45,133 bases of DNA from Phycisphaera mikurensis. GTDB lineage: Bacteria; Planctomycetota; B15-G4; JADJEK01. The notes under the pieces are model-generated. The model was not told the DNA's origin. It searched no databases and saw only the letters and a program-made list of their open reading frames with translations. This document shows positions 8,410 through 40,036 of the stretch, piece by piece. The position numbers and the translations under genes were made by a program. The stretch is from the NCBI GenBank assembly GCA_020723465.1, contig DYIW01000002.1:7048-52180 (forward strand), written 5' to 3'. The stretch's first letter is position 1. Each line of letters begins with the position of its first letter.

Positions 8410-9858
8410 TCAGTAGCGGAAGGTGCGCTTCTCGATCTTCGTCTCGAACGGTCCCACCTGGTACTGGCACGCGATGACGTACTCGACGCCCTTCTTGGGG
8501 CCGCTCCATGCGGCCGAGCAGCTAAAGCCTCACCCGTACTTGAAGGTGCCCTGGGCGACATTCTCACCCGCGGCCGTGACGATGGTGTAGCTCGGTTCCG
8601 CCGGGCGGGCCCTGCTGCTCTGCGAGAGGACGACCGAGCTCTTCTTGCCCGAGACGAGCTGGAGGTCGGTCAGGAGCTCCTGAGCCCGTCCCTGGACGTT
8701 GAACCCGAGGTCGGCCTCAGTCGCGCCGGTCTCCTGCATGTTGCGCAGGGACCATTCAGACACCTGCGCCACGGGCAGGTAGGGCTCGCCGAACTCGAGC
8801 AGGGCCTCGGCGCCGGGCGCGACGCTCAGGAAGGGCGTGGCGCCGCTGCCTGCGGCCTCGAGCCGCCAGAGGTCGCCCTCCTTGCCGCTCTGCAGCAGCG
8901 CGTAGCGGAGCAGCCGCCAGTCGCCGGCCGGGATCCTGGGATTGACCGGCCGGTGCATCATGACGCAATGCGCGAAGTTCCGCTCGAGCAGGGTCAGGCG
9001 CTCCGGCGCCTGGGAGAGCTTGAGCGGCACGATCTCGTCCTCTACCGGCGCGAGCGCCAGCTTCCTGGCGGCCGTGTCGACCTTCACCGTGAACGCCTTC
9101 TCGCCGAGGATCAGGAGATCGCCCAGCAGAAACTCGTCCGCTCGCGACATCTTCTGCTCGGCCGTGAGGTACAGGCTGTCCCCCTGCGCGTAGATCGGCT
9201 GATCCGCGGACACGTACAAGTTCTCGGGGATGCGCGCCGTGTCGGAGAAGACTCCGTTGCAGTCGCCGTCCCCGAGCATGACCTGGTAGGTGGCGCCGTC
9301 CAGCGTGAACGAGCCGGCGTAGTGGCAGGCGGTGTCGACGCCGAAGTAGATGAAGCGCGCGGCGTCGCCGCCGTCCTCCTGGTTCTGCCCCTGCAGGCGG
9401 AAGCCCAGCCGGTAGGGCAGGACTGCGCCGCCGAGGCGGTATTCGACCGAGACCTCGTCGTCGAAGGAGACGTAGTACTGCTCGATGTCGCCGAAGCGGG
9501 CCAGATCTCCCACGAGGACCGGGTCGTCCGTGAGGTCGCCGTTGTCGTTCCGGTCGAAGCGGATGCGGTTGTAGAAGCCGTCGTCCGCCGCGACGCGATC
9601 AAGCACGGCCAGGAAGTCGGTCTCGCCGAGGGTCACGGTTGCGAAGAGCGGCCGCGCGCCGGTCAAGTCCGGCAGGTTCCAGTCGCCGCCGGGACAGTCG
9701 GGTGAAGGCTGCGCGTGGGCGCTCCCCCAGGGATGGACAGCGTCCTTGTCGTCGAGGTTCTGCCGGTACTCGAGCGCCACCTCCAGCGTCTGCGCGGGCG
9801 CGAGGCCGCACAGCAGCAAAAGCAGCGCGAGGGACCGGACCGGGAATCCACAGATCAT
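8410..9858 (-). CDS. Exported putative selenoprotein, YG-U-GFxC family paralog 1 (482 aa, Sec codon at 8530-8532)
   Basis: Signal peptide and DxNxNGDLTDD motif. The frame continues past TGA: ...GTFKYG-U-GFSCSAAWSGPKKGVEYVIACQYQVGPFETKIEKRTFRY*. This extension matches the post-UGA extension of 15729..17198, and a SECIS-like hairpin follows. Confidence 0.85.
8490..8532 (-). promoter_or_regulatory. Candidate bacterial SECIS element
   Basis: UGA-14 nt-GGCCGC[AUGGA]GCGGCC; the loop starts 20 nt after the UGA. Confidence 0.7.
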
Positions 9859-10026
9859 CTTCCAGCCTCCTTTCTGGGTGAACGATCCAGCATATCAGGT
9901 TGTGCACGGGCTGCCAGCCGCCAGGGGGCGGGCGGCGCGTCCCCTGGCCCGGTGGTCGCTACCCGGCGAGGCTCTCGACGCCTACGATCGACGGGGCAGC
10001 GTGGCCGTGTACGGAGGGTGGCAAGC

Positions 10027-10719
10027 ATGGACCGAATCGCCGTGACCGTTGCCGCTGGCGTCGTGTTGCTGTTCGTGACCGGAGGCTGCGCGCGGAAGGA
10101 AGAACGTCCACCGGCCGCCGAGGGAACCTTCGCGATTTCCGGCTTGCCGGCCGAGATGACGGTGACGCAGCGATCCACGACGGCGGTCCCGGGATCGGAC
10201 GGGCGCGTGCGCGTGACCGTCGATGACGTCACGCGCGGCCAGGTGACGGTCACGGTGCTCGCCGAGGATGGGAGCGCGCTTGCCGGTCCGACGTCTCTTT
10301 GCCCGGCAGACCGCGTGCGATTCGCGGCGGGCGGGGGCGCCTACGTGCTGCAGCTCGAGGCGCTGGACAACGCGCTGGTGGGCGAGGACCACGCCACCCT
10401 TGTGATCGCCGCCGCGGAGGCCGGCCCGCCGGAGCGCGAGAAGATCGAGCGGCTGCTCGCGTTCGTGGCGTCGATGCAGGACGCGGTCTTCATCCGCAAC
10501 GGCGCCGAGTATCCGGCCGCGGAGGCCGCCGACCATCTGCGCTGGAAATGGGAGGCGGCCGGCGCCCGCATCCGCACGGCCGAGCAGTTTATCGAGGAGA
10601 TCGCGACGCGGTCCTCGGCCAGCGGAGAGGCCTACCAGATCCGGCTCAAGGACGGCGTGCTCGTGCCCGCGGGCGAGTACCTGAAAGAGCGGCTGGCCGA
10701 GATCAATGAGAACGGCTAG
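10027..10719 (+). CDS. Lipoprotein with C-terminal DUF5329 (YfeK-like) domain
   Basis: Lipobox-like VTGGC. C-terminal EREKIERLL...FIRNGAEYPAAEAADHLRWK...TAEQFIEEIATRSSASGEAYQI is recognisable as DUF5329. Confidence 0.75.
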   Translation: MDRIAVTVAAGVVLLFVTGGCARKEERPPAAEGTFAISGLPAEMTVTQRSTTAVPGSDGRVRVTVDDVTRGQVTVTVLAEDGSALAGPTSLCPADRVRFAAGGGAYVLQLEALDNALVGEDHATLVIAAAEAGPPEREKIERLLAFVASMQDAVFIRNGAEYPAAEAADHLRWKWEAAGARIRTAEQFIEEIATRSSASGEAYQIRLKDGVLVPAGEYLKERLAEINENG

Positions 10720-11536
10720 CGGGCGGCGCCTGCGGCCGCGAGCGCGGCGTGCGCGGCTTGGGCCCGCGCTGCACGCACACGGTCTGGCACTCGTGGCAGA
10801 CCACGCAGTCGAGGGCGCGGCTGGCGGGAACGCCCGCGCGGAAGCGCTCGGAGGGCTTGCCTTCCATGGGACAGACCTTGTTGCACTTCTCGCACTTGAG
10901 GCATTCGAACTTGGCCGGGCTGACGCTCCACAGGCTGACGTGATTGAAGGGCGCGAGCATGGCGCCGAGCGGGCACAGGACGCGGCAGAAGCCGCGCTCG
11001 AAGAAGAGCACGAGCAGCAGCACGAGGACGAGCACGCCTAGCTTGATCGCCGTGGCCAGGCTGATCGCGGCGCCGCCGATCAGGTTGGGGATCGTGACCT
11101 GGAGCGCGGAGGCGGGGCAGACGCGGCAGAAGGACCAGAGGGTCTCGGCGCCGAAGAACCAGGGCAGAGTGAAGATGGTGAGCAGGAGCACCAGGTACTT
11201 GATGTACGTGGTCCAGGCCGGCAAGGAGAGCTTGGGCGTGGGGATCTTGTGCAGCAGGTCCTGCAGGAAGCCGAAGGGGCACACCCAGCCGCACAGCAGG
11301 CGGCCGAGCAGCGCGGCCAGCAGCAGGAAGAGGCCGAGCGTCAGATAGGGGAGGACGTGCCAGCCCGAGTAATGCACGAAGATGCCCATCGGGCAGGCGA
11401 ACCAGGCGAGCGCGCATGAGTGACAGCTCAATACCGGCGCGCAGAACCACTTGAGCTGGAGGGCGGGGCTCCAGGAGCTATGCAGCAGCAGGAGGGAGAA
11501 GGTCTGCACCCACCTCCTGGTCTTCTGGATCATCAT
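10703..11536 (-). CDS. Membrane 4Fe-4S binding protein (NapH/MauN-like)
   Basis: CHSC-x6-CP, CGWVCPFG, CRVCP and FCRVLCPLG motifs, several TM segments, and two ferredoxin motifs (CLKCEKCNKVCP, CVVCHECQTVC). Lies directly downstream of selB. Confidence 0.85.
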   Translation of the reverse strand: MMIQKTRRWVQTFSLLLLHSSWSPALQLKWFCAPVLSCHSCALAWFACPMGIFVHYSGWHVLPYLTLGLFLLLAALLGRLLCGWVCPFGFLQDLLHKIPTPKLSLPAWTTYIKYLVLLLTIFTLPWFFGAETLWSFCRVCPASALQVTIPNLIGGAAISLATAIKLGVLVLVLLLVLFFERGFCRVLCPLGAMLAPFNHVSLWSVSPAKFECLKCEKCNKVCPMEGKPSERFRAGVPASRALDCVVCHECQTVCVQRGPKPRTPRSRPQAPPASRSH

Positions 11537-11579
11537 GGGAATGGAGTCGTGACAGCGGCGGCCGGGTTGTGAGCTGGTC

Positions 11580-13571
<1,992 letters not shown>

Positions 13572-13613
13572 GCGCTGTCCCTCATCGCCGCCGGAGCTGC
13601 GCTAGCTCCTGCC

Positions 13614-15029
13614 TCATGCGTCTGCGCGCGCCGCGCGCCGCAGGGCTGCATGCACCAGCGCGTCCTCGCCGGCGAGGAGCGTGCGCATGTCGAGGATCAC
13701 CTCCTCCTCGCTGATGCGCGCGATGACGGGCGGCTCGTTCTGGCGCAGGAGCTGGCTCAGCCGGTCGGGGGAATGCCGCGCGCTCCGCACGGCCAGCACG
13801 TAGGTCTTGAGCGGCGTCGCCGGCATGGAGCCGCCGCCCGCGGCGCTCTCGTCCTCCTTGACGCGCGCCTCCAGGGGCAGGCGGTCGGCGTCGATGCGCT
13901 TCTTCAGGCGCTGCGCCCTCCGGCGCAAGTCGGCCGGGTCGGCCGCCAGCATGCGCAGGGTCGGGTGGTTCTCCAGCAGCGTCTCCTCGTCCAGGAACAG
14001 GCGCAGCGTCTGCTCGAGGGCGAGGTCGGTGAGCTTGCACACGCGCATCATGCGGGCGAAGGGGTGCTTCTTGATGCGCGCGACCAGCTCGGCGCGGCCG
14101 ACCACGATGCCGGCCTGCGGCCCGCCGATGAGCTTGTCGCCGCTGAAGCAGACGACGTCCGCGCCGGCGGCGATGCTCTCCTGCACGGTCAGCTCTTTCG
14201 GCAGGCCGAAGCGCGTGGTGTCCACCAGGGCGCCGCAGCCGACGTCGTCGATGACGATCACCGGCCGCTTCTGCTTCAGCGCGACCAGCTCGGCGATGGA
14301 CACTTCCTTGGCGAAGCCGACCACGCGGTAGTTGCTCGGGTTGGCGCGCAGGATGGCGCCGGTGCGCTCGTTGAGCGCCTCCTCGTAGTCGCGCAGGTGC
14401 GTGCGGTTGGTGGTGCCGACCGGCACGGCGATGGCGCCGCTCTGGCGGATGCAGTCCGGCAGGCGGAAGGAGCCGCCGATCTCGATGAGCTGGCCGTGCG
14501 AGACGATGACTTCCTTGCCGGCGCAGAGGGCGGAGAGGATGAGCAGCGTGGCGGCGGCGTTGTTGTTGGTGATCATCGCCGCCTCGGCGCCGGTCAGGCG
14601 CGTGAGCAGGCGCTCGCTCATGTAGCAGCGCTTGCCGCGCTTCCCGGTGTCGAGGTCGATTTGCATGCTGCAGCAACGGTCGAGCGAGGCGAGCGCGGCA
14701 GCGGCGCGCGGCGGCAGCACGGCGCGGCCGAGGCCGGTGTGCAGGATCACGCCCGTGGCGTTCACCACCGGCCGCAGGCGGTCCTTCTCCTCCTCGAGGA
14801 CGATGTGGCGCACGCGCTCCACGACCTCGCCCATGGCCGGCAGCTCATCCCCGGGGCGGAAGGCGCGGCGGAACTCGCCGAGCGCGGCCTTGATGGCGTC
14901 CAGGACCAGGGGGCGCGAGAACTCGGCGATCAGCTCGTGGATGCGCGGTTCCTCGAGCACGGCGTAGACCGGGATGAGCCCGCGTCGCGTGTCGTCGCCG
15001 CCGTCTGGGGGGGAGGAGTCTCGTGTCAT
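13614..15029 (-). CDS. selA: L-seryl-tRNA(Sec) selenium transferase
   Basis: VVNATGVILHTGLGRA, NNNAAA, EIGGSFRLPD, VGTTNRTH and the PLP motif FSGDKLIGGPQAG. Confidence 0.97.
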   Translation of the reverse strand: MTRDSSPPDGGDDTRRGLIPVYAVLEEPRIHELIAEFSRPLVLDAIKAALGEFRRAFRPGDELPAMGEVVERVRHIVLEEEKDRLRPVVNATGVILHTGLGRAVLPPRAAAALASLDRCCSMQIDLDTGKRGKRCYMSERLLTRLTGAEAAMITNNNAAATLLILSALCAGKEVIVSHGQLIEIGGSFRLPDCIRQSGAIAVPVGTTNRTHLRDYEEALNERTGAILRANPSNYRVVGFAKEVSIAELVALKQKRPVIVIDDVGCGALVDTTRFGLPKELTVQESIAAGADVVCFSGDKLIGGPQAGIVVGRAELVARIKKHPFARMMRVCKLTDLALEQTLRLFLDEETLLENHPTLRMLAADPADLRRRAQRLKKRIDADRLPLEARVKEDESAAGGGSMPATPLKTYVLAVRSARHSPDRLSQLLRQNEPPVIARISEEEVILDMRTLLAGEDALVHAALRRAARADA

Positions 15030-15044
15030 GGGCCTATGCAAAAG

Positions 15045-15139
15045 TGGCGGAGGTGAATGGGAGTCGAACCCACCTAGCGTCTAAGCGACGATACGACGGC
15101 TTTGAAGGCCGCGGGAGCCACCGGGCCCCGCTCACCTCC
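15045..15139 (-). tRNA. selC: tRNA-Sec (anticodon UCA)
   Basis: 95 nt with an 8-bp acceptor stem GGAGGUGA/UCACCUCC, anticodon arm GCGGC-CUUCAAA-GCCGU, long variable arm, T arm GUGGG-UUCGACU-CCCAU and encoded GCCA end. Directly upstream of selA. Confidence 0.97.
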
Positions 15140-15169
15140 GCATGTTGTCTGCGCGGCGGCCGCCGATCC

Positions 15170-15198
15170 CTTCTACTTGCGCCCGCTCCTGCCGTCAA
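15170..15198 (-). promoter_or_regulatory. Putative sigma70 promoter of selC-selA-selB
   Basis: TTGACG-N17-TAGAAG, about 30 nt upstream of tRNA-Sec. Confidence 0.55.
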
Positions 15199-15229
15199 GG
15201 CAGCCCGGCCGCCCGGCCGGAGCGGGAGG

Positions 15230-15258
15230 TTGCCGCGTCGTCGCTCGTGCGGTAGCAT
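15230..15258 (+). promoter_or_regulatory. Putative divergent sigma70 promoter for the two selenoprotein genes
   Basis: TTGCCG-N17-TAGCAT, back-to-back with the selC promoter. Confidence 0.5.
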
Positions 15259-15349
15259 CCTGGACGCAGGCAGCCGCCGTTCCGGCCGCGCGGGTCGTTC
15301 CTCCGCGCCGGGGGGCGCTTGCCAGGACCGTCCGGAGGTGCGGCGTTTC

Positions 15350-15631
15350 ATGGCGGCAGGACCCTGGGTCAGGAAGTCGGCGGCTGCCGTCATTCTCGCC
15401 GGGAGCGTGGTGCTGATCGCGGCCGCGCGCGAGCGCTCGTACGACGTGCGCGTGCTGGACGCCGACGAGCTGGCCGAGGTGCTGGGCGTCGCGCCCTTCG
15501 ATCAGATCAGCGAGACGCAGCTCGCCATCGACGCCACCTTCACCGGCGTCATCCGCAAGGAGGGTGGGCTCTACTCCACCTACGACCGGTCGCAGCCGCG
15601 CAGCAAGCGAGCCTGCCCGACGTGACAGTAG
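15350..15631 (+). CDS. Small membrane-anchored protein with C-terminal C-P-T-U-Q (putative CxxU selenoprotein, 93 aa)
   Basis: ATG 15350 after GGAGG, N-terminal hydrophobic helix, ends ...KRACPT TGA CAG TAG. SECIS-like hairpin at 15641-15659. Confidence 0.7.
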
Positions 15632-15660
15632 TCCTTCCTTGCCGGTCACGGCGACCGGCT
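15623..15660 (+). promoter_or_regulatory. Candidate SECIS element (mostly in the 3' UTR)
   Basis: UGA-15 nt-GCCGGUC[ACGGC]GACCGGC; the loop starts 22 nt after the UGA. Confidence 0.55.
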
Positions 15661-15728
15661 GACCAACTATTGATGCAGCAGAAGCGGCGCGGAGGCGGTG
15701 CGCTCGCACCCCGCGCCGAGGAGCCGAG

Positions 15729-17198
15729 ATGACAGGAGCGTGGAAACGACTCGCGCGGGCGGGCCTGTTCGCGGGCGCGCTCGCCGCGCCGGCCCTGGCC
15801 GAGGAGGTGGCGCTGGAGTACGTGCGCTACCCGGAAGGCGAGCAGGAGGACGAGGCGTTCCTGCCGCGCTTCACCCGCGCCATCGAGGAGATCGCGACCA
15901 GCGCGCCGCGCGGGGACTTCAAGCTGCCGCCGCTCCAGAGCAAGGAGCCCCTGTTCGCGCTCCTCGAGCTGGGCGGGGAGCCGCGGCTGCTCGTCTTCGA
16001 CCGCGCGGACGCCGGCGATCCTTTCTTCAACGTCCTTTACTGCGACGCCGATGGGGACGGCGACCTGACGAACGACCCGGCCCTGAAGAGCGTCGATGCC
16101 GAGGCCTTGCCGGGCTACCTCGAGCTGCCGCCGCTCGATCTGAAGGTGCGCGCGGGCTCCGGCCGCGCGGACTACAGCCTGCGCGTCACACTCACCTCGA
16201 GCGCGCTGCTCGAGGGCGGGGAGCTGAGCGACCCGCTCGACCTCGAGGACCTTTCCCTGCAGATCACCCCCAACTGCTGCTACGCGGGCGAAGCGGCCTG
16301 CGCCGGCGGCGCCTGCCGCCTGCTGCTCGCCGACGCGAACGTCAACGGGCGCTTCGACGACGTGGTTCGGCTCGACTCTGACGGCTACGAACCGTTCCAG
16401 GCCATCGAGCCCGCGGGCGACCTGCTCTACCTGACCACCGCGGGCACAGTCGAGGCAAGCGACTTCTGCGCGCTCGGGAACGTGCTCGCGCTCGGCCAAG
16501 ACGTGTTCCAGGTGAAGGTCGACGCGGCCGCGCGGAAGCTCGTGCTCGAGCTTTGCGCCGACGCCAGCGCGACCCTCGACCTGCCGCAGGACTGCGAGCG
16601 CCTCTGCCTCGCCTCCGAGGACGGCGGAACGTACGTGGTTCTGTTCCAGCCGGGCCGGAGCGCCTCCGTCCCTGCCGGGAAGTACCGGGTCGCCGCCTAC
16701 CGGCTGCGGCGCGCCGACGCCGAGGGCGACGTGAGGAGCCTGGCCGCGGCCGCCACGCCGCGCACGCCTTTCTTCATGGCGGCAGCGGGCGCGTCCACGG
16801 CCGTGGCCTTCGGCGAGCCCTTCGCGCCGGCGGCGCGCGTGCCGCCGAGCGCCTACGAGGAGGCCGCGGGCGCGACACCGGAATCCGTGCCGGTCGAGTT
16901 CCGCATCGACGGCAGCGCCCAGGAGGTCGTCACCGACCTCAGGCGCGTCTCGGGCAGCGCGACCAAGATCGAGATGGACGGGGTGAAGACGCACCTGCCG
17001 AAGGCGCCGGCCTACGTGATCCTGTCCGCGGCCGGGAAGATCGCTGCGCGCGGCGCCTTCGAGTATGGCTGAGGCTTCACCTGCTCGGCCACATGGGCTG
17101 GCCCAGAAGCGCAGACCAAGTACGTCGTCGTGTGCACCTACCAGGTGGGGCCCTTCGCCAGCGCGAAGGTGAAGGAGGAGATCGCGCCCTTCCCGTAG
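15729..17198 (+). CDS. Exported putative selenoprotein, YG-U-GFxC family paralog 2 (489 aa, Sec codon at 17070-17072)
   Basis: Signal peptide ending ALA-EE and DADGDGDLTND motif. Reads ...GAFEYG-U-GFTCSATWAGPEAQTKYVVVCTYQVGPFASAKVKEEIAPFP*. Collinear with 8410..9858 on both sides of the UGA. Confidence 0.85.
17070..17110 (+). promoter_or_regulatory. Candidate bacterial SECIS element
   Basis: Lower stem GCUUC/GAAGC and upper stem GGCCA[CAUGGGC]UGGCC; AUGG starts 20 nt after the UGA. Confidence 0.65.
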
Positions 17199-17268
17199 TC
17201 CTGCAGGCGCGTCCGAGCGCAACCTGATCGACGGGGTGTGCTCCTAACATTGAGCGGCTACCGGGGTC

Positions 17269-17340
17269 TCGTGCCCGTGCCCGTGCCCGACGGTAGCGAA
17301 CGCCATGACCCGCTTCGATCGGGCACGGGCACGGGCACGA
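17269..17340. repeat. Perfect 22-bp inverted repeat built from (GTGCCC)3
   Basis: TCGTGCCCGTGCCCGTGCCCGA (17269-17290) and TCGGGCACGGGCACGGGCACGA (17319-17340), with a 28-nt spacer. Confidence 0.9.
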
Positions 17341-17565
17341 AACAGCCAGCCCGCCTGCTCAGGGTCGCACGCAGACCCGCGCAATCGACTTCCTCTATCA
17401 GCGCGATTCGCCGTTTCTCTTTCGCGGCGCCGAGATGGGGGAGGCGGTGCCGCCGCGCACCGGGAACGGCCCGAAAGCGGCGCTCGGCCCGCAAATTGCA
17501 TATGGGTTTTGGAGTCGGTACGCTCGCTCGTTCGCTTCCGGCGCCAGCCAGGTGGAGTTGGACCA

Positions 17566-21876: not shown

Positions 21877-21880
21877 CGCG

Positions 21881-30811: not shown

Positions 30812-31140
30812 GGTTCCGGCGACTCCTTGGTGCTTACTTCGGTGCGCCATTGTTGCCTGTCGCGCGCGACGGACCATGGTGCAGCGGTCGACCCCTTCCC
30901 GCAGACTTGTCGGCGTACGTCGCACGAGTGCATCCGCGACACAAACTGCCATGCGCGATGGATTTACGCCGACGCAGGTGCTCCGCTCGGGCGCTGGCGG
31001 TGCTCCCCGGCGGGTTCTCTTCGCGACCCCGCGCCACGCGGCGAGATCCGAGCTATTCCTTCGCGGGCATGCGCTCCGCGACCGACATCCGGCACGCGGC
31101 ACGGCAGCCACGGCAAGACCAACACGGAGTCCACAAGGCC

Positions 31141-31467
31141 ATGATCAAGCTCACAAACACGGCCAGCGAAGAGGTGAAGAGACTGATCCAGTCCCAGAGC
31201 GGCGCACAGCCGAAGTTCCTGCGCGTCGCCGTGGCCGCGGGAGGCTGCTCGGGCTGGTCGTACCGGCTCGCCTTCGACTCGAAGCAGGAGAAGGAGGACG
31301 TGGTGAGCGAGCAGGAGGGCGTCAAGATCGTGTGCGACCCCCGCTCCTATCGCCTCCTGAAAGACGCCGAGATCCGCTTCGAGGGCGGCCTGCAGGGCCG
31401 CGGCTTCGTGTTTCACAATCCGAACGCCGCCAGCACCTGCGGCTGCGGCGACTCGTTCTGCTCCTGA
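31141..31467 (+). CDS. HesB/IscA family Fe-S cluster assembly accessory protein
   Basis: GGCSGWSY and NPNAASTCGCGDSF motifs. Confidence 0.92.
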   Translation: MIKLTNTASEEVKRLIQSQSGAQPKFLRVAVAAGGCSGWSYRLAFDSKQEKEDVVSEQEGVKIVCDPRSYRLLKDAEIRFEGGLQGRGFVFHNPNAASTCGCGDSFCS

Positions 31468-31554
31468 TCCCGCGCGCCGCGCGTTCGCGCTTGCCGCCAC
31501 GGCTGCTTTCGGCTCTGCTCTGCAGTTCCGACCGCATGTCTCCGGAGGAGCGCC

Positions 31555-33951
31555 GTGGCAGGACGCATCGGGGTCTTCGTCTGCGAGTGCAAGGGGCAGG
31601 TAACGGGGACGATCGACGTGGTGCGCGTGGCGGCGGCCGCGCGCGCCTTGCCCGACGTGGAGTTCGCCGAGCAGGTCGACATGCTCTGCGGCGAGGCCGA
31701 CCTCGGCGTCGCGGTGCGCCGCCTGCGCGACCGCGGCTGCGACCGCATGCTGTTCGCCGGCTGCTCGCCGCGTTCCTCGCTGAAGTTTCCGGAAGAGCGC
31801 ATCGCGCGCGTGATGGGGGGCCTGGGGCAGCCTGACGCGCTGTTCGAGGTGGCGAACATCCGCGAGCAGTGCGCCTGGCAGCACGCGGACCGCGATCTCG
31901 CCACGCGCAAGGCCGTGGATCTGGTGCGCATGGCGCACGCGCGCCTCCTGACCCTCGAGCCGCCGCCCGAGCCCGTGCCCCTGCCCGGCCGCGCGCTGGT
32001 GGTGGGAGGCGGGCCCGCGGGCCTGCAGGCGGCGAAGGACCTGGACGCGGTCGGCGTCGACGTGACGCTGGTGGAGCGCCGGCCCTGGCTCGGCGGCCGG
32101 CTCTGCCAGCTCCTGCGCGTCTACCAGTCCGAGGGGTGGCCGTCGGTGTGCGACAGCTCCTGCGTCGGGCCGGTGCAGTGTAAGGGCGTGCTGCTCTCCG
32201 AGCGCATCCAGGCCTACACGCGCGCCCGCGTGACCGCCGTGGAGCGCGTCGACGGCCGCTTCCGCGTGACCATCGCCGCGGCGCCCGAGCACGTGGATCC
32301 CGCGCGGTGCATCTCCTGCGGCGAGTGCGCGCGCGTCTGCCCGGAGGAGACGCCGCGCCTGGCAGACGAGGGGTTGTCGCGGCGCAAGGCGATCGACAAG
32401 GAGTTCGAGCGGGCGCTGCCCGATTCCTACTCGATCGTGGAGGAGGCGTGCACGCGCTGCGGCGCGTGCGTGCCGGCCTGTCCCACGCAGGCAATCGACC
32501 TCGAGCGCGCGCCGCGGCGCTTCACCGTGGATTACGGTGCCGTGTTCCTGGCTGCGGGCGTCGACGCCCTCGACCTCGCGGCCTACCCGCAGTACCTGCG
32601 TTCGCACCCGAACGTGGTCAGCGGCATCGAGTTCGAGCAGATCATGGCGCGCGGCTTCAAGCGCCCCTCGGACGGCGGCGTCCCCGAGCAGGTCGTCTTC
32701 GTGCAGTGCGCCGGCTCACGCGCCGGCCCGGACAAGGAAGTGGGCGGCGTGCCCTACTGTTCCAAGACGTGCTGCGCGGTGACGGTCAAGCAGGTGGACC
32801 GCATGGCCGCGGCCAACCCGGCCATCGAGGCCACGGTGGTCTACTACCGCGACATGCGCACCTACGAGCGCGCGCTCGAGTCCCTGTACCAGAACCTGCG
32901 GAACGTCGGCATCGAGTTCGTGAACGGCGAGGTGACGGGTATCGAGGGCGCGGGCGACGGCCGCCTGGCGCTGCAGGTCGCTCCTTATGTGCCGGGCGAG
33001 GCCGGCGAGGAACCCGAGCCGCTTCGCCTCGAAGCCGACCTGGTGGTCTTGGCCGCGGCGCAGGAGCCGGCGCGCGGCTCGGCCGAGCTGTTCCGCATGT
33101 TCGGCGCCGGCACCGATCGCCACGGCTTCCCCATCGAGAACCAGCCGCGCCTGTTCCGGCCGACCGAGTCGCTGGTGAACCGCGTGTTCGTGGTGGGCGA
33201 GTCGACCGGGCCGAAGGCGGTGCAGCAGTGCGCGGAGCAGGGCAGCGCCGCGGCCATGCGCGCGCTGCCGGAGCTGCTCGCCGGCCGAACGCTGCCGCCG
33301 CGCTTCGCCAGCCGCATCGACCCGCGTCGCTGCATCACGTGCCGCGTCTGCGAAACGGTCTGCCCGCACGGCGCCATCCGCATCACGGAAGAGGGCGCCT
33401 GCAGCGATCCGGCCTTCTGCCAGGCCTGCGGCCTGTGCGCCGCGGCCTGCCCGGTGCACGCGGCCGAGCTCAGGAACTTCAGCGACCGGCAGATCCTGGC
33501 CCAGGCGGAAGTCGCGTTCCGCGAGCTGCCGGCGGGGGAGCCGCGCATCCTGGCGATGCTCTGCTACTGGTGCTCGTACAGCGCCGCCGACTTCGCCGGC
33601 GTGGAGCGCGTCAAGGCGCCCGCGAACTACCGCGTCATCCGCATGCGCTGCTCCAGCTCGGTGAACACCGGCCTGGTGCTGGAGATGTTCAGGATGGGCG
33701 CCGACGGCATCCTGGTGGCCGGCTGCCCGGAGAAGAGCTGCCATCACCTGTGGGGCAACTTCCTGGCGGACAAGCGCACCGACCTGGCGCGCGCGCTCCT
33801 CTCGCAGCTCGGCGTCGAGCCCGGCCGCCTGCGCTTCGAGTACATCGGCGCGCCCATGCAAGCGAAGCTCATGACGGCCTTGCGCGACATGGACAAGAAG
33901 CTGCGCCAGCTCGGCCCGAACCCGGCGGCGCGGGCGGCGGGAGGCGCGTGA
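31555..33951 (+). CDS. Heterodisulfide reductase subunit A-like flavoprotein fused to an MvhD domain
   Basis: GVFVCEC, AGCSPR, NIREQCAW, GGGPAG (FAD) and QCAGSR...YCSKTCC motifs, four ferredoxin motifs, then MvhD-type CYWCSY...RCSS...GCPEKSCH. Confidence 0.9.
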   Translation: MAGRIGVFVCECKGQVTGTIDVVRVAAAARALPDVEFAEQVDMLCGEADLGVAVRRLRDRGCDRMLFAGCSPRSSLKFPEERIARVMGGLGQPDALFEVANIREQCAWQHADRDLATRKAVDLVRMAHARLLTLEPPPEPVPLPGRALVVGGGPAGLQAAKDLDAVGVDVTLVERRPWLGGRLCQLLRVYQSEGWPSVCDSSCVGPVQCKGVLLSERIQAYTRARVTAVERVDGRFRVTIAAAPEHVDPARCISCGECARVCPEETPRLADEGLSRRKAIDKEFERALPDSYSIVEEACTRCGACVPACPTQAIDLERAPRRFTVDYGAVFLAAGVDALDLAAYPQYLRSHPNVVSGIEFEQIMARGFKRPSDGGVPEQVVFVQCAGSRAGPDKEVGGVPYCSKTCCAVTVKQVDRMAAANPAIEATVVYYRDMRTYERALESLYQNLRNVGIEFVNGEVTGIEGAGDGRLALQVAPYVPGEAGEEPEPLRLEADLVVLAAAQEPARGSAELFRMFGAGTDRHGFPIENQPRLFRPTESLVNRVFVVGESTGPKAVQQCAEQGSAAAMRALPELLAGRTLPPRFASRIDPRRCITCRVCETVCPHGAIRITEEGACSDPAFCQACGLCAAACPVHAAELRNFSDRQILAQAEVAFRELPAGEPRILAMLCYWCSYSAADFAGVERVKAPANYRVIRMRCSSSVNTGLVLEMFRMGADGILVAGCPEKSCHHLWGNFLADKRTDLARALLSQLGVEPGRLRFEYIGAPMQAKLMTALRDMDKKLRQLGPNPAARAAGGA

Positions 33952-33952
33952 C

Positions 33953-34966
33953 ATGGCGGCGAAGGTGAAGATCGCGATGACCTGGGCCGCGGCCTGCGGC
34001 GGCTGCGACGTGGCGCTGCTCGACCTCGAGGCCAAGCTGCTCGAGCTGACGCGCATCGCGGACTTGGTCTACTGGCCGGTGGCGCTCGACTTCAAGCGCC
34101 GCAACCTCGCGGCCCTGCCGGACGGAGGCCTGGACATCGGCCTGTATAACGGCGCGGTGCGCACCAGCGAGCAGGAGGAGGACGCGCTCCTTTTGCGGCG
34201 GAAGGCGCGACTGCTCGTGGCCTGCGGCTCCTGCGCTTGCTTCGGCGGCGTGCCCGGGCTCGCCAACCTCTCCGACCGGGAGGGGATCTTCGCGGTCGCC
34301 TACGGCAGCACGCCCTCGACCGAGAACCCGGAGGGCGTGGCGCCCGAGCCGCGCTGCTCCGTGAACGGGAACGAGCGCACCCTTCCCGAGTTCCACGACA
34401 CGGTGAAGAGCCTGGCGCAGGTCGTGCCGGTGGACGCCTTCCTGCCCGGCTGCCCGCCGCCGGGCGAAAGGCTCGAGGACCTGGCCGGCATCGTGGCGCG
34501 CTTCGCCGCCACGGGCGAGGCGCCGCCGCGCGGCGCGGTGCTCGCGAGCGACAAGGCCCTGTGCGACGAGTGCCCGCGGAACGGCTCGCGGAAGGGCGGG
34601 CGCGTCTCCGAGTTCAAGCGGCCGCACCAGCTCCTCGCCGATCCCGAGGTCTGCTTCCTCGAGCAGGGCCTGATCTGCATGGGTATCGCCACGCGCGGCG
34701 GCTGCGGGCTCTCGTGCATTCGGGCGAACATGCCGTGCCGCGGCTGCTTCGGCCCGACCGCGCAGGCCCTCGACCCGGCCGCCGAGGCGCTCTCCGCCCT
34801 CGGCTCTATCGCCGGCGACGCCAACGAGAACGACGTGCCCGCGCACGTGATGAAGCGCGCGGTGCAGAGCATCCGCGACCTGGCCGGCACCTGTTACCGC
34901 TTCACGCTGCCCGTCGCTCTGCTGAACCGCGCCGTGCGGGACGTTCCCGCGGAGAAGTCGCCGTGA
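33953..34966 (+). CDS. mvhG: Group 3c [NiFe]-hydrogenase small subunit
   Basis: ACGGC, GSCACFGG, PGCPP, CDECP, CFLEQGLICMG and PCRGCFG motifs. Confidence 0.88.
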   Translation: MAAKVKIAMTWAAACGGCDVALLDLEAKLLELTRIADLVYWPVALDFKRRNLAALPDGGLDIGLYNGAVRTSEQEEDALLLRRKARLLVACGSCACFGGVPGLANLSDREGIFAVAYGSTPSTENPEGVAPEPRCSVNGNERTLPEFHDTVKSLAQVVPVDAFLPGCPPPGERLEDLAGIVARFAATGEAPPRGAVLASDKALCDECPRNGSRKGGRVSEFKRPHQLLADPEVCFLEQGLICMGIATRGGCGLSCIRANMPCRGCFGPTAQALDPAAEALSALGSIAGDANENDVPAHVMKRAVQSIRDLAGTCYRFTLPVALLNRAVRDVPAEKSP

Positions 34967-36435
34967 AGGAGACGATCACCATCGACCCCATCACGCGGCT
35001 CGAGGGCCACGGCCGCATCGACATCCTGCTCGACGACGCCGGGAACGTCCTCGACGCCTACCTGCAGGTGGTCGAGCTGCGCGGCTTCGAGAAGTTCTGC
35101 CAGGGGCGGCCAGTGGAGGAGCTGCCGCGCATCACGCCGAAGATCTGCGGCGTCTGCCCGGGCGCGCACCACATCGCCTCGGCCAAGGCGTGCGACGCGG
35201 TCTATGGTGTGGAGCCGCCGCCCGCGGGCCGGAAGCTGCGCGAGCTGTTCCTGAACGCGCACATCGCGCACAGCCACCTGCTGCACTTCTTCGCGCTGGC
35301 CGCGCCGGACTTCCTGCTCGGCGCGGAGGCGCCCGCGGCGCGGCGCAACCTGCTCGGCCTGATCGACGCGCTCGGCGAGGAGACCGGCCGGGCGGTGCTG
35401 CGCGCGCGCGGCCTGGCGCAGAAGATCCAGGCCATCATCGCCGGCCACGCCATCCACCCGGTCGCCGCCCTGCCGGGCGGCATGGCCAAGCCGCTGTGCG
35501 CGGACGAACGCGCCGCCATCGAGGAGATGGCCGCGGAGCTGGCCGCGTTCTGCGAGCAGGCGCTCGCGCTCTTCGAGACGCGCGTGCTCGGCGACCGCAC
35601 CTGCGCCGCGGCGATCGAGAGCGACACGTACTGCCATGAGACCCACTACGCGGGCCTGGTCGATCCGGCCGGGCGGGTGAACTTCTACGACGGCAAGGTG
35701 CGCGTGGTCGCTCCGGACGGGAACGAGATCGCGCTGTTCGCGGCGCAGGACTACCTCGAACACATCGCCGAGCGCGTGGTGCCCTGGTCGTACCTGAAGA
35801 TCCCGTACTTGAAGAAGGTCGGTTGGCAAGGGCTCACGGACGGGGCGCGAAGCGGCGTCTATCGCGTGAACTCCCTGGCGCGGCTGAACGTGGCCTCGGG
35901 CATGGCCACGCCGCGGGCGCAGGAGGGGTACGAGCGCCTGTTTGCGCGTTTCGGCAAGAAGCCGGTGCACCACACGCTCGCCTACCACTGGGCGCGGCTC
36001 ATCGAGTGCCTGTTTGCCGGCGAGGAGACGCTGCGCCTGGCGCGTGATCCGGAGATCGCGGACGCGCGCGTGCGCGTGGTGCCGAGCGGCACGCCCAAGG
36101 AGGGCGTGGGCGTGGTCGAGGCGGCGCGCGGCACGCTCTACCACCACTACCGCACCAACTCGCAGGGCATGGTCGAGGCGGTGAACCTCATCGTCGCCAC
36201 GGCGCAGAACAACGCGGCCATGAACATGTCGGTGAAGAAGGCGGCCGCGGAGCTGATCCGCGGCGGCGAGGTGGACGAGCGGCTCCTGAACCGCGTGGAG
36301 ATGGCGTTTCGCGCCTACGACCCGTGCCTCGCCTGCGCAACGCACGCCTTGCCGGGGCGGATGCCGTTCGAGGTCCGCCTCTACCGGGGCGGAGGGCTGG
36401 TGCGGACGCTCAGCCGCGGCTTCTCGTGTCCTTGA
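34963..36435 (+). CDS. mvhA: Group 3c [NiFe]-hydrogenase large subunit
   Basis: GTG start overlapping the mvhG stop, TRLEGHG, L1 motif KICGVCP, EAARGTLYHHY, and L2 motif YDPCLACATH with a cleavable C-terminal tail. Confidence 0.9.
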   Translation: MKETITIDPITRLEGHGRIDILLDDAGNVLDAYLQVVELRGFEKFCQGRPVEELPRITPKICGVCPGAHHIASAKACDAVYGVEPPPAGRKLRELFLNAHIAHSHLLHFFALAAPDFLLGAEAPAARRNLLGLIDALGEETGRAVLRARGLAQKIQAIIAGHAIHPVAALPGGMAKPLCADERAAIEEMAAELAAFCEQALALFETRVLGDRTCAAAIESDTYCHETHYAGLVDPAGRVNFYDGKVRVVAPDGNEIALFAAQDYLEHIAERVVPWSYLKIPYLKKVGWQGLTDGARSGVYRVNSLARLNVASGMATPRAQEGYERLFARFGKKPVHHTLAYHWARLIECLFAGEETLRLARDPEIADARVRVVPSGTPKEGVGVVEAARGTLYHHYRTNSQGMVEAVNLIVATAQNNAAMNMSVKKAAAELIRGGEVDERLLNRVEMAFRAYDPCLACATHALPGRMPFEVRLYRGGGLVRTLSRGFSCP

Positions 36436-37128: not shown

Positions 37129-38176
37129 AAAACGAGCCGGCTTCGCTCGTTCTTCGCGGTTCGACCTGCAGGATCCAGACGATCTGGCCCGTCTCCGAGA
37201 ACCGAAGCTCGCGCTGGGAGGTCTCGATGGGCTGGTCGTTCTCGACGAGGTCCAGCGGCGCCCAGATCTCTTCCCGCTCCTGCGCGTGCTGGTCGATCGT
37301 CCCGGGGCGAAGGCCCGCTTCCTGATCCTGGGAAGTGCCTCGCCGGAGCTGCTGCGGCAGAGCTCCGAGAGCCTGACGGGACGTGTCGCCTACCACGATC
37401 TCGAGGGCCTCGCCCTCGATGAGGTGGGGCTCGCCGAGCGGGACGTTCTGTGGGAACGCGGCGGGTTTCCCCGGTCCTTCCTCGCTGTCTCGGACGAGGC
37501 CAGCGCCGAGTGGCGTCGCGGCTTCGTCCGGACATTCCTCGAGCGGGACATCCCTCAACTCGGCGTCCAGATTCCCTCGGCGACGCTCTCGCGCTTCTGG
37601 CGGATGCTGGCCCACTATCACGGACAGCTCTGGAACGGCGCCGAGCTGGCGCGGGCATTCGGTGTCGCCGCGTCGACGGTTCGCCGCTACCTCGACGTGC
37701 TGAGCGGTGCGCTCGTGGTTCGCCAGTTGCCGCCCTGGCACGAGAACCTCGCCAAGCGGCAGGTCAAATCCCCCAAGGTCTACGTCGCCGACTCGGGCCT
37801 CCTCCACACGCTGCTCGGCCTCGAGACGCGCGCGGACCTCGATTCCCATCCGAAGATCGGCGCGTCGTGGGAGGGTTTCGTCCTCCACGAGGTGGCGACC
37901 CGGCTCGGCGCAAGGCCCGGGGAGAGCTTCTTCTGGGCGACGCATGCCGGCGCCGAGCTCGATCTCCTGGTCGTCCGCGGCCGGCGGCGCCTCGGCTTCG
38001 AGGTCAAGCGAACGACGGCGCCGTCCACGACGCGCTCCATGCACTCCGCCATCGAGTCGCTTGGTCTGGAGCGGCTGGACGTCGTTCACGCGGGAGACCA
38101 CACGTTCGCGCTGACCGAGCGCATCCGCGCCGTGAGCTTCGCGAGGTTGTTCGAGGACGTCGAGCCGCTGGCCTGA
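37125..38176 (+). pseudogene. AAA_14/DUF4143 ATP-binding protein lacking its N-terminal Walker A
   Basis: LDEVQR (Walker B), ILGSAS, SESLTGR, GGFP, SPKVYVADSG and FEVK are present. No GxRxxGKT is found upstream in frame; that sequence is occupied by the protease 3' end. Confidence 0.6.
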
Positions 38177-38198
38177 CCGGCCGTCGCGGGACGGCCGG
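38177..38198. terminator. Hairpin between convergent stop codons
   Basis: CCGGCCGTC-gcgg-GACGGCCGG, a perfect 9-bp stem. No U-tract. Confidence 0.4.
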
Positions 38199-38200
38199 GC

Positions 38201-40036
38201 CTACTCCTCCTTCTCCTCCTCGAGCAAGCCGAGCTTCTTCAGGGCCTCGTCGATGCGGTTCTCGCCGAAGCCGTACCACGCGTCCACGACCTTGCCCTCG
38301 CGGTCGATGACGTAGGTCATGGGAACGGCGCTCATGCCGAGGGTCTCGTACTTGCTGGTCACTTCCCAGGCCTTCTGCGAGGGGTCGAGCACGTTCGGGA
38401 AGGTGACCTTGTTCTCCTTCATGTAGTCGATGGCGATCTGGCGGTCATCGGCCTCGTTCAGGCCGAGGACGACCAGGCCCTTGTCGCGGTACTTCTCGTA
38501 GATTGCTTGGAGACTCCCTGTCTCCTCTCGGCAAGCGGGTCAGCCACAGCGCCACTTGTTCAGCCAGACCACGTTGCCGCGATAGTCCGAGAGGCGGATC
38601 GTGCTGCCGTCCACGGCCGGAAGCTCGAAGTCGGGCGCCTCGGCGCCCGGCGGCAGCAGGCCTTCCTCGATGGGCGGGAAGTCCCACTCCTTCCAGCCCT
38701 CGGGCGGCTTCCACTGGAACTGCTCGGGCGCGATCTCCGGGTTGAGCGTCACCTCGGACCAGTCCTCGTACACGAGCAGGTTGAAGCTGACGCGCACCAC
38801 CTCCTCGAGCTTGCGCGGCAGGTGGTCCTTCTTCGACAGCCACAGGTACCAGCTCCGCTGATGGTCCATGATGCTGACTTCGATCTTGTCGCACTCCTCA
38901 TCCGCGACCGCGTCGCTGCCCAGGCTCCGCACCCCGTCCACGTAGGGCTGCAGCGAGTCGGAGTAGCCGTGGAAGGTGCTCGGGTCGAGGATGGTCATCG
39001 ACATGCCGGCGCCCAGGCTGCCGACCTCGTGGCCGATGGAGTGGCGCCCGACCGGCGTGCGCTTCGTCATGTAGTACGAGTCCTTGTACTGCTCGTACTC
39101 CGCGGCGTACTTGCCGCCGTTCTCCTCCCACGGGTAGCGCGGCTTGCCGGGCGGCCAGTAGATCCAGAAGTGGTCGCCGTCGCCCACGAGCACGCCGGTC
39201 AGCTCGCCTTGCTCGTTGCAGACTTCCACGCGCGCGTAGTTCGGCTTCTTCAGCCAGATGCGGTACGTGGCCTTGGAGGGATGCTCGTCCCCCTCCCTGC
39301 CGAACTGGTAGCTGCTGACCCAGGAGAGCGACTCGGCTTCCCACATGGCGTCGATCATCGCGTCATAGAGGGCGCGGCCGGCTGCATCGCCCTCGAACTT
39401 GGGGGAGGGGCTCTCTTCCCCGGCGAACTGCGCGCCCGCGAACTGCGCGCCCGCGACCTGCGCCGGCTCCTCCGCGTCGAGCAGAGCCTGGACATCTTCG
39501 GTCACGTCACAGTTGCAGAAGAACTGCTCCCCGGCGCGCAGAACGTACGCGGCGCCGGATTCCTGGATGCCGGGATCGAGGATGCGGACCGCGCCCTTCT
39601 CGCGATCGACCTCGAAGCCTTTGCCCTCGAGGAGCCGCGCGCCGTTCAGGATCACGCGCACGCTGCCCGCGGCGAGGGGCCGGTGGAAGAGGAACAGCCC
39701 CGGATCGCGCACCCTGCCATGCACGAACAGCATGTCCACCGCGCAGTCGAAGGCGATCTCGCGCAGCAGGAAGATCTTCCCGCACAGGGGATCGTAGGCG
39801 AAGTCCACGCCGTGTTCGAGGGGCTGCATCTTGCTGGTGCGCCCGCCGGCGCAGATCGACACGTTCAGTCCCTCGGCCTCCAGGGGATTCATGAGCGTGA
39901 ACACGCGCGCGTCGTCGGTCGGCTGTGCGTTCGTGCCAACGACCCCCCCCGCCGCGCGCGCGGTTCCAGCGAACGCGGCGAGCAGCAGGAAGAGGGCGGT
40001 CAACGATCTCGCGGGAAGGGCGTGCGGCGCGGACAT
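38201..40036 (-). CDS. Exported LolA-like + TlpA/AhpC-TSA redoxin selenoprotein (611 aa, U-P-A-C active site, Sec codon at 38540-38542)
   Basis: Track ORFs 38540..40036 and 38201..38422 are in the same frame: APDFELPAVDGSTIRLSDYRGNVVWLNKWRCG-U-PACREETGSLQAIYEKYRDKGLVVLGLN...AVPMTYVIDREGKV. The UGA occupies the first Cys position of CxxC. Confidence 0.93.
38503..38542 (-). promoter_or_regulatory. Candidate bacterial SECIS element
   Basis: Lower stem GCUU/AAGC and upper stem GGAGAC[AGGGA]GUCUCC; the loop starts 20 nt after the UGA. Confidence 0.8.
39423..39463. repeat. Short in-frame 15-bp tandem repeat (AQVAG-AQFAG-AQFAG linker)
   Basis: GCGAACTGCGCGCCC twice plus a degenerate copy, at a domain boundary. 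Confidence 0.7.

Follow-up and report, generated by a model that had tools for sequence, protein, structure and literature searches.

A candidate extracytoplasmic selenium-based redox module encoded with selenocysteine-decoding genes

NapH/MauN, NosR and CcoG feed electrons to periplasmic enzymes, and animal thioredoxin reductase carries selenocysteine (Sec, U) in a C-terminal GCUG tail. Here we describe a locus in a 45,133-nucleotide (nt) stretch of the Phycisphaera mikurensis assembly GCA_020723465.1 (contig DYIW01000002.1, forward-strand positions 7,048 to 52,180; hereafter the window, whose own numbering is used unless another contig or locus is named), in which the genes for Sec decoding stand together with genes for a NapH-like iron-sulfur (Fe-S) membrane protein, a small membrane-anchored protein with a CxxU tail, and exported proteins with a G-U-G-F-T-C loop (G-U-G proteins). 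Like NapH/MauN, the C-terminal part of NosR and CcoG, the NapH-like protein combines four transmembrane (TM) helices and a Fer4_5 domain with two CX3CP motifs, each following a helix, and with paired CxxCxxCxxxC motifs in its C-terminal part. In concept the locus resembles the DsbD/CcdA and TlpA/ResA relay, in which exported CxxC-type proteins receive reducing power through the membrane, and the window also encodes a redoxin of TlpA/ResA type. The small protein shares with C-terminal Sec tails (animal thioredoxin reductase, GCUG; bacterial UXX-star proteins, NF041114 and NF041211) a Sec placed 1-3 residues from the end beside a Cys, and its gene shares with them a hairpin resembling a Sec insertion sequence (SECIS) beyond the stop codon. 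The UXX-star selenoprotein families are listed in Table 1 of PMC13188914, and passages of PMC4807772 and PMC13188914 describe how the selenoprotein gene fdhA beside selAB 'anchors' the Sec trait in Proteobacteria; as there, a selenoprotein system is here physically tied to the decoding genes.

We consider it probable, if only by a modest measure, that these genes form a conserved extracytoplasmic selenium-based redox module that travels with the Sec-decoding genes, in which electrons would pass from the NapH-like protein to the CxxU tail and on to the G-U-G proteins where these are present. An earlier note on the window had proposed a relay of this kind, and the sel genes, the 4Fe-4S protein, the CxxU protein, the U-x-x-x-C (G-U-G) protein, its paralogue and the UxxC redoxin were all found where it had placed them. 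The host genome comprises 5.8 Mb in 456 contigs (92% complete, 1.9% contamination), with the window, of about 70% G+C, on contig C190; its nearest public relative is a groundwater Planctomycetota metagenome-assembled genome, with 80-96% protein identity along the locus.

Decoding genes, small CxxU protein and NapH-like protein

The decoding genes, the NapH-like gene and the small gene lie as follows (bit scores from profile searches; E, expectation value).

15045..15139, minus strand: selC, tRNA-Sec with anticodon TCA (ARAGORN; Rfam RF01852, 73.1 bits against a gathering score of 47)
13614..15041, minus strand: selA, L-seryl-tRNA(Sec) selenium transferase, 475 amino acids (TIGR00474, 511.7 bits, cut-off 267.9; Pfam SelA, E 9.9e-130)
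11580..13571, minus strand: selB, Sec-specific elongation factor, 663 amino acids (TIGR00475, 292.5 bits, cut-off 242.25; Pfam GTP_EFTU, Beta-barrel_SelB, SelB-wing_3)
10703..11536, minus strand: NapH-like 4Fe-4S membrane protein ('fer4'), 277 amino acids (Pfam Fer4_5, E 3.9e-15, 56 bits)
15350..15631, plus strand: small bitopic selenoprotein candidate, 93 amino acids, tail ...K-R-A-C-P-T-U-Q-stop, TGA at 15623-15625
15641..15659, plus strand: candidate SECIS hairpin of 7 base pairs (bp) with a 5-nt loop, starting 18 nt past the TGA of the small gene, beyond its stop

On the minus strand, selC, selA, selB and the NapH-like gene form one set, which diverges over a gap of 210 bp from a plus-strand pair, the gene of the 93-residue CPT-U-Q protein followed by that of a 489-residue G-U-GFTC protein. 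Of the back-to-back promoters proposed in the earlier note, the divergent arrangement was confirmed and the promoters themselves were not, a sigma-70 scan of 8200-17500 having returned 0 sites; planctomycetal promoters may differ. The tRNA-Sec is the sole one found in the 456-contig genome, which also has a TGA-containing selD, and selA is present in 221 of 301 genomes sampled evenly across the phylum. All four candidate Sec TGA codons of the window are followed by a hairpin. The N-termini of the four candidate selenoproteins are signal-peptide-like or anchor-like, as the note had held, judged by inspection only.

The small protein begins with a stretch rich in K/R, followed by a single TM helix, an acidic segment, in many cases a linker rich in Pro/Gly, and a conserved C-terminal part. 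Its main-form tail reads ...R-T-Y-[S/T]-G-x-x-P-S-L-C-P-T-TGA-V-K-stop and that of the window's clade ...S-T-Y-D-R-S-x-P-x-x-K-R-A-C-P-T-TGA-x-stop, with CPT-TGA invariant in a 20-row alignment (A3). Database gene calls end at CPT in 29 of 30 aligned homologues, the window's own included, and at CPS in one. Relatives of the gene were mostly missed by tblastn, which found them in 3 of 80 G-U-G loci, and were recovered by motif searches. In searches at E up to 0.01 and 0.1, no model of Pfam-A or of NCBIfam (release 20, June 2026) was matched by the window's protein or by main-clade members.

Gene neighbourhoods were compared in two samples of loci that overlap in part, some contigs being shared. 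On the NapH-like side the best 80 of at least 586 relatives were taken, with G-U-G genes sought within 8 kb; on the G-U-G side, at one genome per species, the best 80 of at least 136 relatives, with up to 10 kb each way and many short contigs. An open reading frame (ORF) of the form C-x-[T/S]-TGA-(0-2 codons)-stop lay just upstream of the NapH-like gene in 76 of the 80 NapH-like loci; of the others, two are truncated where the contig begins, one has no small gene, and L157 has a CxxC form instead. These loci contain tRNA-Sec in 51 cases, selB in 18 and either of the two in 60, and span about eight phyla, their lineages including Planctomycetota with Phycisphaerae, Sumerlaeia/BRC1, Nitrospiraceae, Hydrogenedentota, Verrucomicrobiota, Kiritimatiellia, Armatimonadia and Desulfomonilales-type Deltaproteobacteria. 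In a cross-phylum clade (L094-L110), selC, selA, selB, the small CxxU gene and the NapH-like gene follow one another on one strand. From the G-U-G side, a NapH-like gene was found in 36 loci, tRNA-Sec in 25, selB in 10 and selA in 9, the usual order on one strand being tRNA-Sec, small gene, NapH-like gene and one to three G-U-G genes. Of these 36 loci, 34 have the small gene (29 with CPT-U or CAT-U, 5 with CPS-, CHT- or CET-U), and the other 2 are cut at the contig start. The clustering of CxxU, NapH-like and sel or tRNA-Sec genes on which the earlier note had built is therefore conserved, the small gene preceding the NapH-like gene in 76 of 80 loci of one sample and 34 of 36 of the other, and the gene set is found again in many uncultured bacteria.

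At the Sec position of the small gene, TGA was found in 76 of 76 cases on the NapH-like side and TAA or TAG never, against a share of 54% (267 of 494) for TGA among stop codons of long ORFs in these loci (G+C content 37-71%). Without exception, another in-frame stop comes 0-2 codons later. A hairpin of 7-8 bp lies 16-19 nt past the TGA in all 28 loci folded; its support consists of folding and position. Because the hairpin is kept at the same distance in four loci without a fer4 start directly downstream (the window, L006, L008 and L009), it is more than the ribosome-binding region of fer4. Locus L157, where the CxxC form occurs, has no tRNA-Sec. With a conserved TGA, a close second stop and a hairpin at SECIS distance (76 of 80 and 34 of 36 loci), the small protein is a candidate selenoprotein. 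Since its charge pattern runs from N-terminal K/R through the TM helix to an acidic stretch, its N-terminus is predicted to lie inside and its CxxU tail outside the cytoplasm.

In the NapH-like protein, 18 Cys residues are invariant among 50 homologues. They form two ferredoxin-type CxxCxxCxxxC motifs (C212/215/218/222 and C244/247/250/254), two CX3CP motifs (C82/C86-P and C184/C188-P), and six further positions: C32, C38, C41 and C48-P in the loop 26-59 and C137-x-x-C140-P in the loop 129-159, with the patterns C-x5-C-x2-C-x6-CP and C-x2-CP. Four TM helices (2-18, 63-85, 107-128, 160-178) were placed by hydropathy, loop charges and an AlphaFold2 model with a predicted local distance difference test (pLDDT) of 74.3. 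The mean numbers of K+R and D+E are 5.2 and 0.8 at the N-terminus, 3.7 and 1.2 after helix B, and 1.6 and 3.0 after helix C. With both termini thus predicted inside, the six extra Cys would lie on the outer face and the Fe-S and CX3CP motifs in the cytoplasm, so that the charge-based prediction puts the CxxU tail outside, in agreement with the earlier note, and these six Cys as well. To our knowledge, NapH has no counterpart of the six outer-face Cys; its topology, reportedly worked out by Brondijk et al. in 2004, was used for comparison.

Identity of the 10703..11536 protein as a curated NapH or NapH/MauN member was considered and rejected, its scores of 64.4 bits against the NapH/MauN model TIGR02163 (cut-off 213) and 58.3 bits against the NapH equivalog (cut-off 234) being far too low; the main-clade member of locus L058 reached 34.9 and 39.8 bits against the NapH equivalog and NapH/MauN models, again below both cut-offs. 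Foldseek found nothing similar to the model of the NapH-like protein at E up to 0.001, a blank that is no proof of a new fold, and no napA or napG was found among the ORFs of the window, the rest of the genome not having been searched.

Several further genes bear on this group. Another Fer4_5 membrane paralogue, 34% identical and fused to a C-terminal heavy-metal-associated-like domain, is encoded on contig C419 (12289-12903, minus strand); it was rejected as a second module, since its N-terminal part is without the four-Cys loop and no CxxU gene lies upstream of it. A gene for a DUF5329 lipoprotein-like protein (9715-10719, plus strand) lies between that of G-U-G protein 2 and the NapH-like gene and converges on the latter, the ends of the two ORFs overlapping by 17 bp. 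In two related loci, a fusion of SelD with a carboxymuconolactone-decarboxylase (CMD, AhpD-like) domain lies directly upstream of tRNA-Sec, small CxxU gene and NapH-like gene (L147:4673-6283 and L121:5620-7254), and SelD-like and AhpD-like (CMD-type) stretches share one long TGA-read frame upstream in L058:4879-7800. A second selA, 41% identical, lies on contig C171 (668-1981) of the host genome with the TGA-containing selD (2054-2980) directly behind it, and a second selB-like gene, 37% identical, on contig C211 (44802-46682); two selA matches also occur in the module-bearing genomes G055, G088, G165 and G208. The NapH-like gene of the window is 54-62% identical to those of other phyla, compared with 36-42% to the main Planctomycetota clade. 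Together with the second selA and selB, this hints that a cassette of sel genes and module may move laterally.

Exported G-U-G proteins and the TlpA-type redoxin

The two G-U-G genes of the window and their hairpins are the following.

15729..17198, plus strand: G-U-G protein 1, exported all-beta selenoprotein candidate, 489 amino acids, F-E-Y-G-U-G-F-T-C, TGA at 17070-17072
17087..17103, plus strand: SECIS-like hairpin of G-U-G protein 1, columns 18-34 past the TGA in alignment A6, with the UGG codon of the invariant Trp in its loop (supported by pair counts)
8410..9858, minus strand: G-U-G protein 2 (paralogue), 482 amino acids plus stop, F-K-Y-G-U-G-F-S-C, TGA at 8530-8532, true stop TGA at 8410-8412
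8499-8515, minus strand: hairpin of G-U-G protein 2, with a compensatory change from A-U to G-C relative to protein 1

G-U-G protein 1 reads ...FEYG-TGA-GFTCSATW... and has a signal-peptide-like N-terminus. G-U-G protein 2 is 36% identical to it, and a third paralogue, on contig C437, 25% identical, each with the TGA in the same column. Within the 80 loci of the G-U-G side, all 102 family genes have TGA and none a Cys codon at this position; the motif G-TGA-G-[F/Y/L/I]-x-C was found in family context in 78 loci, the other two (L011, L012) ending at a contig edge before it. As the second search pattern of the scan was written for a Cys codon, Cys forms would have been favoured, had they been common. 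Past the TGA, 40-60 residues are conserved, and the invariant columns are G447, U448, G449, C452, W456, P459, P475 and F476. The shared column in a paralogue of 25% identity and the TGA in 102 of 102 genes make the pattern more than chance.

The hairpin was tested on the 40 nt past the TGA in 61 sequences, aligned gap-free, with 500 shuffles and slid-partner controls. An 8-bp helix pairs columns 17-24 with 28-35 after the TGA; 90.9% of its cells are paired, compared with 22-58% when one side is slid, and 4 of the 8 pairs have changed on both sides. Double changes were found in 38 cells, compared with 5.3 +/- 1.9 in the shuffles, none of which (0/500) reached as many. In a subclade with SHD1 (SLA1 homology) repeats (L014, L016, L023, L036, L039, L065), the stretch past the Sec loop reads R-H-L-W-Q-V where R-Y-S-W-R-V is usual; as these residue changes are exactly the compensatory base changes of the hairpin, RNA structure appears to constrain the protein sequence.

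In the even sample of 301 genomes, 30 had a G-U-G match at E up to 1e-10, 11 of them to the N-terminal part of the family only. The TGA-type gene occurred in 16 genomes, of which 15 have selA, the exception (G063) being 90% complete, and lay within about 3 kb of selA in 9 of them; full-length, stop-free variants occurred in 3 genomes (one 69% complete), none with selA. The co-occurrence with selA expected from the earlier note is borne out by these counts of 15 of 16 and 0 of 3. When 1.84 billion cluster representatives were searched with a profile built from 46 members, 4243 proteins matched at E up to 0.001, of which 804 did so at E up to 1e-30. Among the best 150 matches, 143 end at or before the TGA position, the gene calls being cut there, and 7 run on, with Cys at the Sec position in P0254, P0260 and P0267 and neither Sec nor Cys in the other 4. 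A word-based search with the 489-residue protein returned 4 hits including itself, all cut at the TGA, of which two named ones are called 'hypothetical protein'. Window and main-clade members gave no Pfam-A or NCBIfam match apart from a sub-threshold one to GEVED and, in one subclade, SHD1 repeats at the N-terminus. With a conserved TGA followed by conserved coding sequence, a covarying hairpin and Sec machinery in the same genomes, the G-U-G proteins are exported selenoprotein candidates of an uncurated family.

AlphaFold2 models G-U-G protein 1 as a string of beta-sandwich domains (pLDDT 88.8; predicted template modelling score, pTM, 0.87), with the Sec loop in the last immunoglobulin (Ig)-like domain (residues 362-489). 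This domain gave only generic Ig/FN3-like matches (best Z 8.2, root-mean-square deviation 2.7 over 80 residues), and Foldseek with the whole protein only generic multi-domain Ig/FN3 matches (best E 4.6e-4, TM 0.11), which is no proof of a new fold. Two conserved D-x-N-x-N-G-x-x-x-D-D loops look calcium-binding. Short genes or fragments of 60-120 amino acids hold only the C-terminal Sec domain (e.g. Y-G-U-G-G-T-C), in the L058:4879-5200 region and at L051:3227-3517, L040:7921-8280 and L075:11023-11202, and may be mini-versions or remnants. Just past the true stop of G-U-G protein 2 lies a strong terminator-like hairpin (8359-8393; 15 bp, G+C-rich, T-rich tail, fold z-score -4.3), likely a bidirectional terminator between this gene and a convergent metalloprotease-like gene (6148-8322).

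As parts of the module, the exported G-U-G proteins suggested by the earlier note stand in a share of loci: the motif lies within 8 kb in 23 of the 80 NapH-like loci, mainly of Planctomycetota, with 9 further hits by tblastn only, and the family is an optional third tier rather than a constant one. Elsewhere, the genes downstream of the NapH-like gene are unrelated (radical SAM, dehydrogenase, GFO/IDH-type oxidoreductases, others).

The fourth Sec candidate of the window lies about 21 kb further on.

38201..40036, minus strand: exported selenoprotein candidate with DUF2092 and AhpC/TSA-Redoxin (TlpA/ResA-like) domains, 611 amino acids, TGA at 38540-38542

Its domains were matched by Pfam AhpC-TSA (E 1.6e-23), Redoxin (E 3.4e-19) and DUF2092 (E 2.2e-7). 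It reads ...WRCG-TGA-PACREE..., so that W-R-C-G-U-P-A-C is a UxxC motif with an extra Cys two residues upstream, and the TGA is kept in 7 of 9 matches spanning the site in 42 genomes of the order. All scores were below the curated cut-offs (ResA 80.8 against 170, TlpA 36.6 against 230, WAxxUGC_long 41 against 300). With its Redoxin/AhpC-TSA domain, UxxC motif and, by inspection, export-like N-terminus, the protein probably works like TlpA while standing outside the curated ResA and TlpA models; UxxC Redoxin and TlpA selenoproteins are already in Table 1 of PMC13188914. The earlier note had counted it into the module. It is outside: the redoxin was absent from all 80 G-U-G loci, and none was seen in the 80 NapH-like loci. 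The same note had made the relay independent of DsbD/CcdA, but three DsbD_TM/CcdA genes (PF02683, over the cut-off) were found in the host genome, on contigs C88, C193 and C346. As these could serve the redoxin in the usual way, a DsbD-independent route may exist but is not required.

A candidate relay and its alternatives

The module would have as its core pair the NapH-like four-helix membrane protein and the small bitopic protein with its periplasmic tail C-x-[T/S]-U-(0-2 residues), to which Planctomycetota and a few other lineages would add one to several exported beta-sandwich proteins with an invariant G-U-G-F-T-C loop. Reducing equivalents from quinol or a cytoplasmic donor might cross the membrane through the Fe-S clusters and Cys pairs of the NapH-like protein to its outer Cys, where the Cys/Sec pair on the flexible tail of the small protein could take them over, swinging like an arm, much as the GCUG tail does in the thioredoxin reductase of animals. 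In a last step, the Sec/Cys pair of the G-U-G proteins, or other periplasmic targets, would be reduced (or oxidised). The relay of the earlier note survives here in its synteny, its predicted topology and a weak complex score. Genes, conserved TGA codons, SECIS-like hairpins and synteny are observed; topology, binding, the direction of electron flow and the substrate are what we infer.

For the complex prediction, the small protein was used as a 91-residue form without U-Q, with alignments of database search hits. The NapH-like and small proteins reached a median score of 0.37 (runs 0.47, 0.37 and 0.31), compared with 0.00 for the best of three controls; the runs agreed in at least 74% of contacts, with a partner pLDDT of at least 55. 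Among solved complexes, 58 of 80 reach the mark applied to the score, as do 2 of 110 mismatched pairs; of those reaching it, only 7 of the 80 solved complexes, and both mismatches, score 0.60 or under. The contact between the 4Fe-4S and small proteins implied by the earlier note thus has weak support from modelling.

Several points weigh against a relay. By the calibration of the method, a complex score of this size is weak and misleads more often than not, except for pairings that were probable from the outset; synteny, charge-based topology and this one weak prediction are what the relay is built on, every part of it being known from sequence and models. Because some contigs belong to both locus samples and relatives are not independent of one another, the locus counts describe the data and are not statistics. 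A G-U-G gene was absent within 8 kb in 57 of the 80 NapH-like loci (48 counting tblastn-only hits), and no NapH-like gene was shown in 44 of the 80 G-U-G loci, so that the G-U-G tier is not obligatory. The topology derives from the positive-inside rule and a medium-confidence model (pLDDT 74.3); as the four-Cys loop has a pLDDT below 50, the outward placement of its Cys stays a prediction. No oxidoreductase fold was found in the exported G-U-G proteins, only generic Ig/FN3-like sandwiches (Z up to 8.2). Finally, the genes could lie beside the sel genes as a client inherited along with the decoding trait, and not as links of a functional chain.

The CxxU and NapH-like pair might also serve the selenium pathway itself, as a reductase or carrier in the membrane that brings extracytoplasmic selenium (selenite, Se(0), selenotrisulfides) into a form that SelD can use, with the G-U-G proteins as later add-ons or selenium-binding partners; we rate this as rather improbable. 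With the pair sitting inside sel operons in many phyla, it is an equally natural reading, and one that the earlier note did not consider. The pair lies directly behind selB in L094-L110 and elsewhere directly behind tRNA-Sec, with the SelD-CMD fusion just upstream of tRNA-Sec in L121 and L147 and the SelD-/AhpD-like frame in L058. NapH, NosR and CcoG, the relatives of the NapH-like protein, act on periplasmic inorganic substrates or their enzymes, and the loci without a G-U-G gene have unrelated housekeeping genes downstream, with no other client evident. Yet making the pair already requires Sec, the pair has no transporter domain, nothing in its sequence points to selenium as a substrate, and YedE/YedF-type uptake candidates already exist, according to a passage of PMC5322559. 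On such an account, to which we attach the same low probability, the pair would be an unrecognised and widespread component of the Sec system, a Sec-dependent membrane device capturing or reducing extracytoplasmic selenium for selenophosphate synthesis, to which Planctomycetota would have added an exported family that is obligately Sec-dependent.

Unlikely, too, is an arrangement in which only the CxxU and NapH-like genes form a unit, and the exported selenoproteins, G-U-G proteins and TlpA redoxin alike, are independent of it and have gathered near the sel genes in the manner of fdhA in Proteobacteria. The 44 G-U-G loci without a nearby NapH-like gene, dispersed paralogues such as that on C437, the mere 23 of 80 NapH-like loci with the G-U-G motif and the unlinked redoxin all speak for it; where both are present, however, they are usually adjacent on the same strand in the order tRNA-Sec, CxxU, NapH-like, G-U-G in many Planctomycetota loci, and 9 of 16 genomes have the TGA-type gene within about 3 kb of selA. 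Far less credible is that the TGA of the small ORF is a true stop, the leader and its hairpin coupling translation of the NapH-like gene without any Sec. Although the main-clade hairpin overlaps a Shine-Dalgarno-like GGAGG and ATG codons of that gene, and database gene calls finish at ...CPT, a true stop would leave unexplained why TGA is never replaced by TAA or TAG at 54% background use and 37-71% G+C, why a second in-frame stop always follows within 0-2 codons, why the hairpin keeps its distance in the four loci without an adjacent fer4 start, why a CxxC form occurs where tRNA-Sec is absent, and why the small gene is tied to tRNA-Sec or selB.

Neighbouring genes and comparison with known systems

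Two further parts of the window were noted. At 1898-5482 (plus strand), close to the module, a sigma-70 region of extracytoplasmic-function (ECF) type and a CarboxypepD_reg-domain protein are covered by one long ORF call; the same pairing is found in an unrelated locus (L160:12646-15713), and its recurrence near the module may be coincidence. HesB/IscA-like proteins, HdrA/MvhD and the [NiFe]-hydrogenase large subunit belong to families with known Sec forms, and genes for a HesB/IscA-like protein, a fusion of HdrA-like protein and MvhD (FlpD), and a [NiFe]-hydrogenase large subunit lie at 30850-36435, with HycI, HypA and HypE genes near by. As further selenoproteins these were rejected, all being Cys forms (e.g. 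C-terminal D-P-C-L-A-C).

Among the 119 families in Table 1 of PMC13188914, a review of May 2026, there is no U-x-x-x-C beta-sandwich family and no anchored C-x-x-U tail peptide, and a literature search returned no account of either motif and none of sel operons with a NapH-like protein; supplementary tables or BSepDB may list them. Database names of both families are 'hypothetical protein', and ESM Atlas clusters are labelled 'hypothetical' or 'uncharacterized'. A passage of PMC12013277 has it that deep-Sep and Cys/Sec-pair searches may miss selenoproteins without Cys homologues, and both families, which almost never occur in Cys forms, fit this description. If the assignments hold, there would be two apparently undescribed selenoprotein families, one of them large (the 4243 cluster representatives at E up to 0.001), thousands of database proteins cut at these TGA codons would need re-annotation, and in about eight phyla the Sec-decoding operon would have a membrane Fe-S protein linked to it. 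The module is a testable candidate for what keeps the Sec trait in formate-dehydrogenase-poor lineages, and equally for the extracytoplasmic handling of reducing power (or selenium).

The candidate relay differs from each of the systems that it resembles. Compared with NapH/MauN, the window protein scores under the cut-offs, has six extra invariant Cys predicted to face outward, and is encoded with sel genes and a CxxU peptide. In place of the DsbD_TM protein and the thioredoxin fold of the DsbD/CcdA relay, the membrane part is an Fe-S protein and the carrier a C-terminal Cys/Sec tail. The small CxxU protein is a membrane-anchored peptide without the enzyme domain of the GCUG and UXX-star proteins and gave no NCBIfam match at E up to 0.1. 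Unlike fdhA-selAB, the linkage to the decoding genes concerns other proteins, the client genes lying between or directly behind selC and selB and Cys forms being rare. Measured against these systems, the locus would hold new selenoprotein families and a new Fe-S/Sec form of transmembrane redox relay, both apparently undescribed.

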